From an uncultured Bacilli bacterium (GTDB taxonomy: Bacteria > Bacillota_I > Bacilli_A > RF39 > UBA660): DNA of 64,000 nt. The position numbers and the translations under genes are program-made. Where the stretch lies: contig CAKOMQ010000004.1 in the NCBI GenBank assembly GCA_934096715.1, forward strand, positions 2,051 to 66,050, written 5' to 3'. This document shows positions 31,476 to 36,011 of this stretch, piece by piece (positions within the stretch are counted from its first letter, which is position 1; every line of letters begins with the position of its first letter). Below the pieces are notes generated by a model, which saw only the letters and a program-made list of their open reading frames with translations, ran no database searches and was not told the origin of the DNA.

Positions 31476-34400
31476 TTATAGTTGGATATTTTTTGACTGA
31501 ATTTGTTCTTTATCTAAAGATTTCAAATAATTTTTTAAAGCTTGAGTCATTTTATTATATCCAGATTCATTCATATTATTAGCAATAAAATTATCATGAG
31601 AATATTGATTTCTACGTTCTGCTAAATGATTTTCACCAAAGTCCCATATTTGATAAGCTGATTTAAATTCAGCAAAGTTTTTGCCTTCAGCTGCTTTAAC
31701 AAAACTTGTAGCGGCATCAATAAAAGAACCACCATTTTGAAGAATCCAATTTTCAATTCCAACGCCACCTAAACCACCTTGTGGAACTTCTCCACGATTT
31801 GGTTTATACACTTCTGCTTTTTTTAATACTTGTTTAGCAAGTAATATATTAGCAACAACAAGGTTATATTTTTCCGTATCTAAATTTTTAATAGTTGATA
31901 ACCTGTCTTGTAACGCCATTTCTGTAGAATATGATATTTTATCTGTCTTATTAGTAAACGTAATATCAATATCAACATTAGTATCATTATCAATTTGAAC
32001 ACCCTTTAACCTAAAATCTCCTGACGCAATTATTTCTGAAGAATTTTCTTTACCTAAATTTTTCAATATTGTCCTTTTTAATTCATCAACTTTTTGTGAA
32101 CCTGATATTATTGATTTATCAAGTCTCATCATAAAATCAAAATCTCCATCACCAGGTTTATTTGTTCCCCTACCTGTTGATCCAGTGTCAATTAATTCTA
32201 CAACTCCTTCTGTTAAATCGCCATCAATCTTTGTTTTTAAATGTAACCCTAATTCTTCAAGAGATTTTTTTATAATCGAGTTAATTTTATTTCTCTTTTC
32301 TTGAGTTTCAAGATTACTTTGCTCTATTTGACTAGTTAATTCTATTGTTTCATTTGTAACCAAATTTTCAGAAAATGAATAATTATTTTCGCCAAAATGA
32401 GATAAACCACTCATTTTTTCTCTTAAATTATCATAGTCCTTAGGAGTAAATACAATTTCTCCTTTTTTATTAGCAACCGGTATATAAAAACCATTCATAG
32501 CAATTTCTAATCCAATTTTCGAACTATCTTCATTGGTTAAAATATAATTTATTTCACTGGAAGCAAACCCAGTTCTTATTCCATAGTGATCTACACTTGA
32601 TAAAGTATGAAAAACTTCTAATTTTGATAAATTTCTTTTTACATCTAATTCTTCTGAATTATTTCTAGTTGTTATAAATCTATCATCATTCTTCAAAACA
32701 AACCATATTGGTCCATAATTATTTGCTATAAGTCCTTCCATTTTATCACTAACCGAACCATCAGATTTCAATACCATAGATACATCGGTATCAAGTGGTG
32801 TAGAGTCACTTCCCGCACTTGCACCTAGATATTCTTTAGATACACTACCATTTTGTAATATATTACTTAAATAATCAATACTTCCTATTCCTTTAATAAA
32901 ATCTCCTTTTTCTAAAATCAAATCTAAGCGAGCAGCATTCCTATTTCTAGAATCAGCAACACTAATTTTATTAGAAATATAACTTTTAGCTTCTTCTAAT
33001 GTATTTATTCCTGCAAATCCACAAAACATTCTAATAACTCTATCAGCTAAGTTATAATCCAATGTATCATCTGAAGATAATTCTTTTACTAATTGCAAAA
33101 TATCATTTAATATGTCCTTACTAATTGTAAAAGTTTTATTATCGCTTTTTGACTTTTTAGTATTATTATACAAAGTTGCTAAGTGATTTCTAAAAGTAAT
33201 TAATTCTTTCATATCAGATTCACTTAATGAATCAAACTGTAAGTGTCCGTTTTTAATCTTTTCATACAAACTAGAACCTATTTCTATATTTTTCAAATAG
33301 TTATTTACAGATCTATTATTTGAACCAAAAGCACATTTAATTAAATCAGAAAATACAATTACTTTTTTACCTGAAGTAGATGCGTTTTTCAATACCGGCG
33401 AAACTATCGAATTATTAAAATCAAATCCTTGAAAATCAGGATGCAAAATTTCAAAACAAGAATAAATTTTTCCAACTACTGGAATGTTATTTTTTACAAA
33501 CATTTCTTCAATTTTATTTAAAGCATCAAACGGTTTATCGGTACACAATATTTGCTTAGCAAGTTCATCCGCAAAAGCACTTATTTCACTAGAATTTGAT
33601 AAAGAAAGTCTTATTAGTATTTTCGCATGATATTCTACCTTCTCAACATTTATTTCAGAGCCAAAATTAATAATATATTCTCTAAAAATGCTTTGACTCT
33701 TAATATCAAACAACTTTGCATATTCAGAAATTACTTTTAAATAATTATGATTTGCTAATTTTATATCTTGCATATCATTAAATGCCGGAATTATCCAAGA
33801 ATACTCTTCAGAAAAGCCAAAAGAAATATTAGTGTTATTAAAATAATTTAATACTTCAGGATGACTATTTAAATATTCGATAGTCATGCTTCTATCATAA
33901 AACATCTTTTTAATTTCTTCAGGAGTATTATTATCTAAAAACATATTTGGATTATTGGCCTTAAAACTATCAGCAATATTTTCATCATATTTTAAATTGG
34001 ATTCAATAATATTCTTTAAAATTACTCTGTCTAATTCACTTAGTAATTCTTCTTTGCTAAAATTTAAATCAAACTTAAAATCATCAAACTTATTATTATT
34101 AAAAAGGTTTTCAATATATTTACCATATAAAATCATTAAACTAAAGACTTCTTCTGAACTAAATAAATTATTAAAATAATTTATTATATTCATAAAATCA
34201 TTATGATTATTATTTTTAACGCACAGTGGCATATATTTAAACAAAACTTCTAAATTAACATTTTTTAAATATTTAATTAACGCAGGATTTGCCAATAAAT
34301 ACTCTGTAGAAAGCGATCTATTATAAAACATTTCTTGCAATTCTTGTGGAGCATTACTATCCAAAAACATTGATGGATAAGATTTTACTAATTCTTTAGG

Positions 34401-36011
34401 TATATGTTCTGGATATTTGATGCCACGCTCTATAATTACCTTTATACAAGTATCATTTAGTTTTTGAGTAATTTGATTTATATTATCATCTATCGATAAT
34501 CTTATATCTGGTTCTTTATTAAAAACAATATCAAAAACATCTTCATATTCAGTAATGAATGCAATAAAATCAGAAAATTCTAATTTATTATTAAGAATAT
34601 TAAAAAAGTAAAAAAAATTTTGATTTTCATCTTGAAAAATATCACGATCAAATTTAAAGTAACACGCAAATTTGTCTTTTAAAAATTCAATATAAGATGG
34701 ATTATTCAAAAGTAATTTAGGAGTAATAGATTTACTATAAAACAAATCTTGTAATTCTTGTGGTGCTTGTTCAGAAATAAATAAATCGGGATTTTTAGTT
34801 CTAAATTCACCGGTAATATGCCGATAATCAAGAGGCTTATTATCGCCATCCGGATATCCAGCCAAAAATCTTCTCATTATTTGATAAAATTCATCTTTAG
34901 TATATATTTCTCCCTTTTTTTCAAAATATGGTATATCGGTTTTGGGTCCATAGTGATATATTTTATCAATTGTCTTTAAAACTTCAAAATTATTTTTTGA
35001 AAAAAAGTGTCCACATTCATTATCAAAATCCACCACATTTTTAACTCCATAATCGGATAAAAATGATAATGAATTTTCATTATTTAAAACATTAAAAGGT
35101 AATAATTCACTATATGATTGTGGCAATAACTTCAATTCATCAATTACTTTTTCAACATCATATTTAGTAGATCCATTAAGATAATCTTTAAGAGAAGAAT
35201 ATTTAAATAATTCATTACATTCTTCATCAGTAAAATTATTTATTTTTCCAAAATTTTTCCGTTCTTTATCTAGTATTTTATCAGTAATTTGTTTAACATA
35301 ATTTTGTTTTTCTTCGTCTGAATTAAATTTAGAAATATCATCGATAACTCTATATAAATCTTGAAAAGAGAATCCATTTAATTTATCTAATATAATTGGT
35401 GCTAAGCCACCATAATTCGACATAAATTTTTTTAATTGATTATCTGTTATATGCGGTTCATTTGTACTATCATGTGACAAAAAATAACTTAGATCTTTTT
35501 CTTTAAATAAATCCCAATTTTTTACTATATCGAATAAGCCTAAATTCCGATTGTTATTAAATTTATCTGCTATATATTTTAAGGTTTCATCAACTTGTGA
35601 AACATCAAAAAATCTATCGGGATATACTTCACGCATTTTAGAACTAAAATTAGAAGGGGAAAGATGATCTATCACAGTTTCATATAACATTTTGTTTAAA
35701 TCATCAGGTTCTTTATTCTCATCTTCAGACATTAATAGTGCTCTAAAACCAGGGAATTTAAATCCATAATCAACTCTTAACATACCATGATTAATTAATT
35801 CCCAATCAAGCTTTTTACACTTATCAACGCCAAATTTTTCCACTAATTCTTTGTCATAACTAATAATACAGGAAATTGGCACTTTATTTTCTAAATCATA
35901 TTTCATATAATTACTAAAAGTAAGATTATTTTTATAAATGCTTTCTAAAATATGTTCGGGTACATCTAATCTTTTTCCAAATATTTGCCATTTACGATAT
36001 TTATAATTCAT
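31476..36011 (-). CDS. Giant (1511 aa) orphan protein with C-terminal Pol-beta-superfamily nucleotidyltransferase (class I CCA-enzyme-like)
   Basis: Uninterrupted 4.5-kb ORF. The C-terminal ~240 aa carry TGSTGRGTNKPGDGDFDFMMRL (GS...DxD), NVDIDITF (third acidic strand) and LLAKQVLKKAEVYKPNRGEVPQGGLGGVGIENWILQNGGSF. These parallel VGSYARNTW..EIDVFLLF / VDVVPCY / LLKGFLKANGIYGAE..GFSGYLCELLIVFYGSF of archaeal CCA-adding enzyme. I recognise no motif in the N-terminal 1270 aa. Confidence 0.7.
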   Translation of the reverse strand: MNYKYRKWQIFGKRLDVPEHILESIYKNNLTFSNYMKYDLENKVPISCIISYDKELVEKFGVDKCKKLDWELINHGMLRVDYGFKFPGFRALLMSEDENKEPDDLNKMLYETVIDHLSPSNFSSKMREVYPDRFFDVSQVDETLKYIADKFNNNRNLGLFDIVKNWDLFKEKDLSYFLSHDSTNEPHITDNQLKKFMSNYGGLAPIILDKLNGFSFQDLYRVIDDISKFNSDEEKQNYVKQITDKILDKERKNFGKINNFTDEECNELFKYSSLKDYLNGSTKYDVEKVIDELKLLPQSYSELLPFNVLNNENSLSFLSDYGVKNVVDFDNECGHFFSKNNFEVLKTIDKIYHYGPKTDIPYFEKKGEIYTKDEFYQIMRRFLAGYPDGDNKPLDYRHITGEFRTKNPDLFISEQAPQELQDLFYSKSITPKLLLNNPSYIEFLKDKFACYFKFDRDIFQDENQNFFYFFNILNNKLEFSDFIAFITEYEDVFDIVFNKEPDIRLSIDDNINQITQKLNDTCIKVIIERGIKYPEHIPKELVKSYPSMFLDSNAPQELQEMFYNRSLSTEYLLANPALIKYLKNVNLEVLFKYMPLCVKNNNHNDFMNIINYFNNLFSSEEVFSLMILYGKYIENLFNNNKFDDFKFDLNFSKEELLSELDRVILKNIIESNLKYDENIADSFKANNPNMFLDNNTPEEIKKMFYDRSMTIEYLNSHPEVLNYFNNTNISFGFSEEYSWIIPAFNDMQDIKLANHNYLKVISEYAKLFDIKSQSIFREYIINFGSEINVEKVEYHAKILIRLSLSNSSEISAFADELAKQILCTDKPFDALNKIEEMFVKNNIPVVGKIYSCFEILHPDFQGFDFNNSIVSPVLKNASTSGKKVIVFSDLIKCAFGSNNRSVNNYLKNIEIGSSLYEKIKNGHLQFDSLSESDMKELITFRNHLATLYNNTKKSKSDNKTFTISKDILNDILQLVKELSSDDTLDYNLADRVIRMFCGFAGINTLEEAKSYISNKISVADSRNRNAARLDLILEKGDFIKGIGSIDYLSNILQNGSVSKEYLGASAGSDSTPLDTDVSMVLKSDGSVSDKMEGLIANNYGPIWFVLKNDDRFITTRNNSEELDVKRNLSKLEVFHTLSSVDHYGIRTGFASSEINYILTNEDSSKIGLEIAMNGFYIPVANKKGEIVFTPKDYDNLREKMSGLSHFGENNYSFSENLVTNETIELTSQIEQSNLETQEKRNKINSIIKKSLEELGLHLKTKIDGDLTEGVVELIDTGSTGRGTNKPGDGDFDFMMRLDKSIISGSQKVDELKRTILKNLGKENSSEIIASGDFRLKGVQIDNDTNVDIDITFTNKTDKISYSTEMALQDRLSTIKNLDTEKYNLVVANILLAKQVLKKAEVYKPNRGEVPQGGLGGVGIENWILQNGGSFIDAATSFVKAAEGKNFAEFKSAYQIWDFGENHLAERRNQYSHDNFIANNMNESGYNKMTQALKNYLKSLDKEQIQSKNIQL

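Follow-up and report, generated by a model that had tools for sequence, protein, structure and literature searches.

The stretch of DNA analysed here, a window of 64,000 nucleotides (nt) from an uncultured Bacilli bacterium (contig CAKOMQ010000004.1), carries on its minus strand an uninterrupted open reading frame (ORF) of 4.5 kb between recG and nifJ (31476..36011), which encodes a protein of 1511 amino acids (aa), below called the window protein. We see about an even chance that this protein is a soluble, acidic cytoplasmic enzyme with a core of ~700 aa, made up of a helical, an α/β and a bilobed Pol-beta-type nucleotidyltransferase (NTase) domain, and that it transfers a nucleoside monophosphate (NMP) to a ribose hydroxyl. 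An earlier note on this DNA had located the same ORF and quoted C-terminal strings that are all found in the protein. It had also described the protein as an orphan, unusual in Bacillota and recognisable only in its last ~240 aa. None of these three points held: the C-terminal module was detected in 1079 clusters (50% identity); within the uncultured low-GC gut Bacilli it is common in one set, with further occurrences in Saccharibacteria; and the family-wide unit of ~700 aa includes a second conserved domain, of α/β type.

The C-terminal nucleotidyltransferase

The C-terminal part of the protein (aa ~1211-1511; 31479..32381, on the minus strand as are all other parts of the protein given below) is predicted to be a bilobed Pol-beta-type NTase, as judged from an AlphaFold2 (AF2) model, Foldseek structure searches and profile matches in family members. 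In the model a long helix (aa ~1220-1253) leads into the NTase core (aa ~1257-1355), which is followed by a helical second lobe (aa ~1363-1510). The alignment identifies the catalytic motif G1277-S1278-T-G-R1281-...-D1290-F-D1292 (32136..32183), and model and alignment together place the third carboxylate on the strand V-D1347-I-D1349-I-T-F (31956..31976). The aligned second-lobe "neck" reads K1393-xxx-K1397-...-Y1402-K1403-...-GGLGGVGIE1420-N-W1422-ILQNGGSF (31722..31835).

Residue conservation was counted over 151 sequences. G1277, S1278, R1281 and D1290 are each present in all 151, D1292 in 150, and an acidic residue (D/E) at position 1349 in 149; in the second lobe, K1393 is kept in 150 sequences, and E1420 and W1422 in all 148 that are ungapped at these positions. 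By this count the predicted catalytic set of the NTase (G1277-S1278, R1281, D1290, D1292, D1349, K1393/K1397 and E1420) is complete. The catalytic triad, for which the earlier note had proposed an integrity check, is intact and not degenerate, and the neck that it had pointed out is conserved at K1393, K1397, Y1402, K1403 and GGLGGVGIENW. The motif that it had written as GS-x9-DxD exists with another spacing: since D1288 is not conserved (kept in just 116/151 sequences), the metal-binding pair is D1290/D1292 and the motif becomes GS-x11-DxD. These patterns of conservation suggest that the C-terminal domain is very probably catalytically active. A HEPN Rx4H motif (R1467...H1472) was ruled out, as the arginines vary in the wider family.

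Members of the NTase superfamily carry the patterns hG[GS], at the start of a short second core helix, [DE]h[DE]h and h[DE]h (PMC2794190). In our model, which spans aa 750-1511 and is numbered from its own first residue, T-G1277-S1278 stands directly before a short helix (model residues 528-532), D1290-F-D1292-F lies on the strand 541-548 and I-D1349-I on the strand 596-605. The hG[GS] pattern, the three carboxylates and the fold match together place the domain in the Pol-beta (NTase-fold) superfamily.

A Foldseek search against the PDB listed 50 matches, all of them with the bilobed NTase fold, at probabilities of 0.99-1.00 for the top 10 and 0.80-1.00 across the list. The best was the class I CCA-adding enzyme of A. 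fulgidus (1r89, E 3.2e-3, and 1ueu, E 8.4e-3, with probability 1.00; also 4x4p), followed by OAS1, the DZF domains of NF90/NF45, CdnC, CdnE, CdnD, GLD-2, TUT4, TUT7, Trf4, MiD51 and cGLR. At the level of the fold, these matches support the likeness to the head and neck of class I CCA-adding enzymes that the earlier note had drawn. The modelled NTase is two-lobed and shares this fold with class I CCA-adding enzymes, non-canonical poly(A)/uridylyl transferases, and the immune signal synthases of the OAS/cGAS and CD-NTase kinds.

Matches from hidden Markov model (HMM) searches are weak and point the same way. NTP_transf_2 (PF01909) matched 11 of 42 family members at E<=1 (best 2.9e-6), and one homologue, P0218, passed the gathering threshold of 21 with 25.7 bits; SMODS matched three of the 42 and DZF_N one (Pfam). 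The PADLOC model of the CD-NTase cyclase (PDLC00776) matched 29 of the 42 members (best E 1.4e-8) and gave E 0.021 for the window protein. The archaeal CCA model TIGR03671 matched five members (best E 1.3e-3) and scored 10.6 bits for the window protein (E 0.18) against a cut-off of 281, and the MntA model scored 13.4 bits (E 0.053) against a cut-off of 60. The whole window protein had no PADLOC match, and PAP_assoc (PF03828) and PAP_central were absent both for this protein and from the 25 most frequent of the 55 Pfam families seen in the 42 members. By family criteria, the NTase lies outside the CCA, CD-NTase, PAP/TUTase and MNT families.

The conserved core, its mid domain and the N-terminal repeats

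The extent of the core was read from the coverage of the window protein by 150 diverse representatives of the family. Coverage is 26-36/150 at aa 1-550, 126/150 at aa ~750 and 144-150/150 at aa 800-1500, a profile that defines a family-wide unit of ~700 aa (aa ~820-1500) rather than one of the last 240 aa. Members of the close subfamily match the window protein at 46-50% of positions in its N-terminal 790 aa, and this identity rises to 66% in the helical domain, 71% in the α/β domain and 75% in the NTase. The AF2 model, computed with a 47-sequence alignment, reached a mean pLDDT of 89 and a pTM of 0.87; an earlier model with nine sequences (71-75% identical; pLDDT 48, mid domain <40) was not used. 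The modelled chain is all-helical to aa ~1030, then forms a strand-rich α/β region at aa ~1038-1200, and ends in the NTase with its long lead-in helix. The view that the ~1270 aa before the NTase are helical and free of motifs is contradicted by the region at aa 1038-1200, which is of α/β type and holds residues kept in 147-151 of the 151 sequences.

This α/β "mid" domain (aa ~1031-1210; 32382..32921; about nine strands), delimited by AF2 secondary structure and conservation, contains the aligned motif L-G1063-[SAD]-x9-D1074-x-D1076-h (32784..32828) and, from model and alignment, a strand K1130-L-E1132-V-F (32610..32624) that fits h[DE]h. G1174, Y1176 and P1178 are each kept in 151/151 sequences, T1071 and E1132 in 149, G1055, D1074, D/E1076 and R1146 in 148, D1069 and aspartate itself at position 1076 in 147, K/R1040 in 144 and G1063 in 135. 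The mid-domain residues are as strictly kept as the catalytic residues of the NTase itself. The three NTase patterns moreover occur in the right order, with G1063 before a helix (317-319), D1074-T-D1076-V on a strand (325-330) and L-E1132-V on another (382-386; model numbering). From D1076 to E1132 there are 56 residues, as compared to 57 from D1292 to D1349 in the NTase, where S1278 and D1290 are 12 residues apart.

A conserved acidic set, G1063...D1074-x-D1076...E1132, with the spacing of an NTase triad suggests that the core may have two centres. We put at about one half the chance that the modelled mid domain is a second NTase-like site for a metal or a ligand. The isolated domain showed no recurrent family in a PDB profile search or in Pfam and PADLOC scans of 24 mid domains, which produced one weak NTP_transf_2 match (E 0.007) and one Polbeta match (E 0.06). 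Assignments as an ADP-ribosyltransferase, RNA ligase (KxxG), HAD, Toprim, PD-(D/E)xK or 2H domain were rejected, on motifs alone, for misfits in motif order, spacing or secondary structure. Separately, the mid domain (aa 1043-1055; nt 32847-32885) and the second lobe of the NTase (aa 1414-1428; nt 31728-31772) share the motif G[IL]G....(5-6)..ILQNG (hhalign P 0.003, probability 11%), which may be due to chance or may be the remnant of an internal duplication.

The mid domain is preceded by a conserved all-helical domain (aa ~791-1030; 32922..33641), recognised from the model and from coverage, within which the family-wide core begins at aa ~820. Its pLDDT is mostly 81-96 per 10-residue block, with few blocks at 65-73, and it is covered in 125-144 of the 150 representatives. 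Its motifs are SNSSE, N.PxVGK.Y..F..LHP, SP.LK, FSDL.K...GSNNRS, HL.TLYN.T and ADxRNR.

The remainder of the protein is conserved in close relatives only. The N-terminal region (aa 1-390; 34842..36011) is acidic, with an isoelectric point (pI) of 5.2, is conserved only in the close subfamily (mean 47.5% identity), and matched no known family in Pfam, NCBIfam and PDB sequence searches. It is followed by three tandem repeats of ~130-140 aa with pI 4.5-5.2 (33642..34841), delineated by pairwise local alignment. The earlier note had seen three long repeats, and these are real: the units at aa ~360-500, 500-640 and 640-780 score 18.2, 10.7 and 20.4 standard deviations (SD) above shuffles, and each carries the motif ...P.[LM]F[LI]....P.E[LI]...FY.[RK]S......L..[NH]P.... 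Homologues have three or four units, the extra one being found in P0002, P0019, P0011 and P0010.

The whole protein has a pI of 5.1 and a net charge of -47, and has no transmembrane segment (maximum Kyte-Doolittle 19-residue mean 0.97). Acidity is a property of the family throughout, the N-terminal parts having a median pI of 5.0 and the cores one of 5.2, with a pI below 6 in 98% of cases. Searches of Pfam, NCBIfam, PADLOC and PDB sequences with the single full protein left both the C-terminal and the N-terminal part without a family. PDB profile searches (A1, A3 and A5) returned only noise (TFIIA, a designed helical repeat and LCP/Cps2A at E 0.1). The earlier note had named the assignment of the N-terminal region to a known family as an outcome that would refute it; no profile search gave such an assignment.

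Family distribution, gene neighbourhood and selection

A word-indexed search with the 1511-aa protein returned 344 clusters at 90% identity. The best 120 of these are nearly all full-length, at 56-69% identity; they stem from gut metagenomes and from metagenome-assembled genomes (MAGs) named "Bacilli bacterium", without any Pfam domain recorded for them. Scanning one genome per GTDB species yielded 61 loci. Their genomes are without exception MAGs of uncultured organisms, labelled by the submitters mostly as Bacilli and in a few cases as Tenericutes, Mycoplasma or Erysipelotrichaceae. A profile built from the last 512 aa was run exhaustively with HMMER against 1.84 billion representatives of 50%-identity clusters and detected the C-terminal module in 1079 proteins at E<=1e-3 and in 699 at E<=1e-30. 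The 512-aa module is matched whole in nearly all of the 1079, usually at the C-terminus, and complete proteins range from ~1000 to 6114 aa.

At least 298 further loci, with a GC content of 22-52%, came from a metagenome scan. The branch with ~50% GC is Candidatus Saccharibacteria (Saccharimonadota), its named relatives being "Candidatus Saccharibacteria bacterium" and "Candidatus Nanoperiomorbus sp.", and many of its proteins have just 743-775 aa. In one of them (P0331, 775 aa, on a 124-kb contig), residues 4-774 align to aa 822-1496 of the window protein with 41% identity, an end-to-end alignment which indicates that the Saccharibacteria protein is the core alone. As judged from such alignments, the ~700-aa core is an autonomous unit that occurs by itself in Saccharibacteria. 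The family is large and unnamed, and spans uncultured low-GC gut and rumen Bacilli and Candidatus Saccharibacteria. No Pfam or NCBIfam family spans the ~700-aa core, and a literature search on the family gave nothing relevant.

Several members depart from the usual form. In the giant proteins P0155 (4932 aa), P0156 (6114 aa), P0242 (5100 aa) and P0218 (3529 aa) the module is internal and is followed by 300-1200 more residues. At the N-terminus of P0155 there is a transglutaminase-like core (E 6e-10), and single members match mTERF, DUF4116 and HEPN_RiboL-PSP, presumably in variable parts. Most of the length of the giants matches no family. One locus (L003) has a tandem second copy (182-4828 and 8000-12995), and the MAG MGBC165900 carries two divergent paralogues (L009 and L043). 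At several loci (L034, L036, L049 and L141) the homologue is split into two or three ORFs, possibly as a pseudogene or through MAG assembly errors.

Flanking ORFs were clustered for 62 and then for 141 loci. No neighbour was conserved over the 141 loci, the most frequent being a large serine recombinase at nine loci, and the adjacency to recG and PFOR is specific to the window locus. Pfam searches of 117 neighbour proteins gave 176 families, each in at most four, and the neighbours are mostly housekeeping proteins such as DNA polymerase A (DNA polymerase I), topoisomerase, SecY, PheRS, UvrD, PPDK and radical SAM proteins. At Saccharibacteria loci we take the neighbours, by reading their sequences, to be UvrB, RF1, an ABC substrate-binding protein and a Nudix-RNase H fusion; what is presumably such a Nudix hydrolase-RNase H-like fusion lies directly upstream, with a 60-nt gap, at L132 and L140 (L140 4806-5693, plus strand). 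The loci examined had no defence or effector neighbourhood and no immunity or antitoxin partner. The idea of an operon partner or a defence island was rejected, as no neighbour is conserved in the 141 loci and most are housekeeping genes.

The family was absent from 50,697 phage records, 72,556 plasmids and IMG/VR, and the idea of a mobile-element origin was dropped for this lack of phage, plasmid or IMG/VR matches. A fold search in BFVD had no significant match. Homologues of one subclade have large serine recombinase genes (Resolvase + Recombinase, some fragmented) downstream, one to three in number and convergently oriented (L018 15027-16435; L067 4947-7790; L062 7936-11500; L089 1712-2482; L096 1668-2348; L134 11775-15512). 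The gap to the stop codon of the homologue is 1-40 bp at several loci and ~1.5 kb in L134, and the 3' flank of the gene in this subclade looks like an integration site of mobile elements.

Ratios of nonsynonymous to synonymous substitution (dN/dS) were computed for 19 independent close pairs. For the core, most values fall at 0.10-0.18 within a range of 0.10-0.48; for the N-terminal region, most are 0.2-0.35 (about 0.2-0.5, with 0.72 and 0.98 in two very close, nearly substitution-free pairs). Both regions are under purifying selection, the N-terminus being about twice as relaxed, and diversifying selection on the N-terminus was not supported, as dN/dS there stays far below 1 for most of the 19 pairs. 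In L116/L120 (0.003 vs 0.121), L132/L140, L117/L121 and L062/L067, all full-length homologues, the two parts of the gene differ 3- to 40-fold in synonymous divergence. This mosaic suggests that recombination or gene conversion has reshuffled N-terminal and core parts.

In the window, the gene starts with ATG, ends with TAA, and has a ribosome-binding site, AGGTGG, 6 nt 5' of the ATG (36018..36023, minus strand); a sequence search found a near-identical protein (P0001) in public assemblies. The upstream gene is of the PFOR/nifJ type (POR_N, PFOR_II, POR, Fer4 and TPP_enzyme_C in Pfam) and ends 124 nt before the ATG. Directly past its stop codon lies an AT-rich hairpin, AAGTAAGATAA...TTATCTTACTT, with a T-run (36083..36122, minus strand), which a GC-based terminator scanner missed. 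From its sequence, it is a probable terminator of the PFOR gene, which would make the 1511-aa gene a separate transcription unit. Between the stop codon of the gene and recG (RecG_wedge, DEAD, Helicase_C and RecG_dom3_C in Pfam), a terminator scan and the sequence revealed an 11-bp GC-rich hairpin (31424..31450, assigned to neither strand) that has a T-run on the plus strand only; on the strand of the gene an A-run comes before it and no U-tract after it. Of the "own terminators" ascribed to the gene in the earlier note, the upstream one probably exists as the AT-rich hairpin with a T-run, and the downstream one holds in part only.

GC content (23-28%) and GC skew are continuous between the gene and its neighbours. 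Beyond recG, two genes away, lies the gene of an OLD-family protein of 598 aa (27126-28922, minus strand) with an AAA_15/AAA_21 ATPase and an OLD-like TOPRIM nuclease domain, possibly a stand-alone defence nuclease. The sole tRNA gene in the window, tRNA-Gly(GCC) (23782-23856, plus strand), encodes its 3' CCA.

Candidate functions

In the reading that we prefer, two Mg2+ ions would support the template-independent transfer of an NMP from a nucleoside triphosphate (NTP) onto a ribose hydroxyl. This hydroxyl would belong to a second nucleotide, giving an oligonucleotide or signal product, or to the 3' end of an RNA. A ribose hydroxyl is proposed because all the structural relatives listed belong to the class that acts on it, with GlnE, KNTase and DrrA, which modify proteins or drugs, not among them. 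The acidic charge of the protein and the lean of its HMM matches towards CD-NTases favour a small nucleotide acceptor over a long RNA. The N-terminal ~790 aa would be an accessory module specific to Bacilli, outside the catalytic machine and serving partner recognition or regulation, in which the repeats probably bind protein, and the gene would act alone, without an operon partner.

Several results weigh against this assignment. The Foldseek E-values are weak, with none below 1e-3, and do not separate CCA-like, tailing and cyclase-like enzymes; such values indicate a divergent member of the bilobed NTase structural class. For NTP_transf_2 the window protein itself stays below the threshold of 21 with 15.2 bits (E 0.029), and the matches to the CD-NTase and NTP_transf_2 HMMs span just ~50-100 residues around GS...DxD. 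As to a second centre, hhalign comparisons of the mid domain with the C-terminal NTase of the same protein gave probabilities of 0.4-11%, the 11% alignment being 30 columns around the "G.G...ILQNG" motif. Comparisons with a shallow KNTase profile, built from plasmid record NZ_CP013628.1 (L142) and just 12 homologues, gave 0.5-0.8%, when the positive control of that profile reached just 6%. Extensive RNA binding is made less likely by the overall acidity of the protein, and CBASS-like signalling by the lack of an effector gene near the 141 loci; no characterised homologue was found.

A more specific version of the preferred reading, which we regard as rather unlikely, would make the core a new kind of two-centre NTase, its two NTase-like metal sites packed against the helical domain, that makes or edits a nucleotide product, either a signal oligonucleotide or an RNA-end modification. 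Such an enzyme would be lineage-defining in Saccharibacteria and in uncultured low-GC gut Bacilli, as bacteria of two phyla with reduced genomes and a dependence on partners, and the Bacilli would have gained expandable arrays of acidic repeats for protein partners. If the mid domain is indeed NTase-like, GlnE and OAS2/OAS3 would offer a parallel, as they likewise have two NTase units per chain. No sequence or profile similarity to them was found, however, and the extra units of OAS2/3 have lost their catalytic residues, whereas both sets are invariant here.

Alternatively, the protein may be a single-chain conflict or defence protein. Recognition of a protein from an invader or competitor, by the variable N-terminal repeats or by the helical domain, would then set the NTase free. 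The NTase could act as a toxin on the 3' ends of tRNA or other RNA, in the manner of MenT and AbiEii, or make an alarm signal as CD-NTases and OAS do. We think either form possible, if not likely. The N-terminal region is variable, gains and loses repeats and evolves about twice as fast as the core; the family is highly diverse (1079 clusters at 50% identity, from ~1000 to 6114 aa); paralogues and tandem or split copies occur (L009 and L043; L003, L034, L036, L049 and L141); and the mosaic synonymous divergence suggests recombination. Compatible with this account are also the CD-NTase cyclase matches in 29 of 42 members, the acidic repeats as candidate protein binders, and the OLD-family ATPase/TOPRIM nuclease gene two genes away in the window. 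However, the N-terminal dN/dS lies well below 1 in most of the 19 pairs, with no signal of diversifying selection, and the neighbours are housekeeping genes (DNA polymerase I, the presumed UvrB, UvrD, SecY, PheRS, PPDK, radical SAM) in place of a defence island or an antitoxin. The absence of the family from the phage, plasmid and IMG/VR collections searched, the lack of a PADLOC match for the whole window protein, and a Saccharibacteria core that does without the N-terminal sensor region point the same way.

Comparison with the known systems of this kind gives a similarly divided picture. The CD-NTases (CdnC, CdnE and CdnD; SMODS/cGAS/OAS) have the bilobed fold in common with our enzyme and give the highest target-normalised TM-scores (0.42-0.52, CdnE up to 0.52), but in the HMM matches the aligned part of the profile is confined to positions ~30-135 of 253-297. 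Around the 141 loci there is no CBASS operon, effector or Cap gene, and the enzyme sits in a ~700-aa core with two further conserved domains. MenT and AbiEii (DUF1814), stand-alone NTases that act on tRNA 3' ends, would serve as a conceptual model of an effector that needs no separate effector gene. They are small, however, and come with a cognate antitoxin, while here there is no antitoxin-like neighbour and one marginal AbiEii match, in the N-terminal part of a single member. In the MNT-HEPN (type VII, MntA) systems a small NTase stands beside a HEPN toxin gene, in contrast to the lack of any conserved neighbour here.

We judge it unlikely that the protein is a housekeeping NTase for RNA 3' ends (CCA repair, poly(A) or tailing) which in reduced-genome lineages would replace or supplement class II CCA/PcnB-type enzymes. 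Class I CCA-adding enzymes are the top structural matches, the head (GS...DxD...D) and the neck-like helical lobe of the A. fulgidus enzyme (1r89, 1ueu, 4x4p) correspond to ours over ~300 aligned columns, and TIGR03671 finds 5 of 42 members weakly. The core is under strong purifying selection, the gene is located among housekeeping genes, and the very small Saccharibacteria genomes have kept it. Yet identity over the ~300 aligned of the 437 target residues is only ~15%, and the 10.6 bits obtained with TIGR03671 compare to a cut-off of 281. The body and tail domains with which class I CCA enzymes bind tRNA are missing, as the protein ends ~90 residues past the neck motif with helices only (AF2), and it has ~1200 extra N-terminal residues, including the helical and α/β domains. 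RNA-binding tailing enzymes lack the acidity (pI about 5) of the protein and its family; neither variable N-termini nor several divergent paralogues would be expected of a housekeeping enzyme; and the sole tRNA gene of the window already encodes its CCA.

A similar comparison holds for GLD-2/TENT2, TUT4, TUT7 and Trf4, which have the same fold, a catalytic domain with a helical "PAP-associated-like" lobe. A helix that carries two lysines at a distance of four residues and leads into a Gly-rich turn is reminiscent of the nucleotide-binding element of the Cid1/OAS type. The protein described here differs from these enzymes in being bacterial and acidic, in its other domain context, and in having no Pfam PAP_assoc or PAP_central match.

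It is quite improbable that the protein nucleotidylates proteins or small molecules, that is, AMPylates or UMPylates them in the manner of GlnE, GlnD, MntA or DrrA, with the repeats binding the target and two centres adding and removing the group as in GlnE. Acidic helical repeats point to the binding of protein and not of nucleic acid, the possible tandem arrangement of NTases recalls GlnE, and NTP_transf_2 and the MntA model match weakly. Against this, GlnE, GlnD, KNTase and DrrA types are absent among the 50 Foldseek matches listed, all of which belong, whether as enzymes or as pseudo-enzymes, to the class with ribose hydroxyls as acceptors. The second-lobe motif K...K...GG.GG..E is, moreover, typical of that class (Cid1, OAS, CCA enzymes).

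Finally, a catalytically silent scaffold that binds a nucleotide only as a cofactor, like the pseudo-NTases MiD51 and NF45/NF90 DZF that are among the structural matches, is very unlikely, since pseudo-NTases such as MMP37 typically lose catalytic residues (PMC2794190), whereas the three carboxylates, GS, R1281 and K1393 are kept here in 149-151 of 151 sequences from two phyla.

With about even chances, then, the protein is an NMP transferase acting on a ribose hydroxyl, and its family and architecture are new and uncharacterised ones inside a known enzyme superfamily. Having no assignment in Pfam, NCBIfam, PADLOC or the PDB, they are genuine "dark matter". The family is common in the gut metagenomes of humans, rodents, rabbits and ruminants, with oral Saccharibacteria among its named relatives. 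A confident AF2 model with an intact predicted active site makes it directly testable, and for Saccharibacteria, where co-culture and genetic manipulation are now possible, a genetic test is conceivable as well. Knowing the product would bring to light a bacterial nucleotide signal or RNA modification not seen before, or else a new two-centre way of building such an enzyme. That the family is common to two unrelated lineages with reduced genomes raises the question of whether it has a part in their dependent lifestyle.

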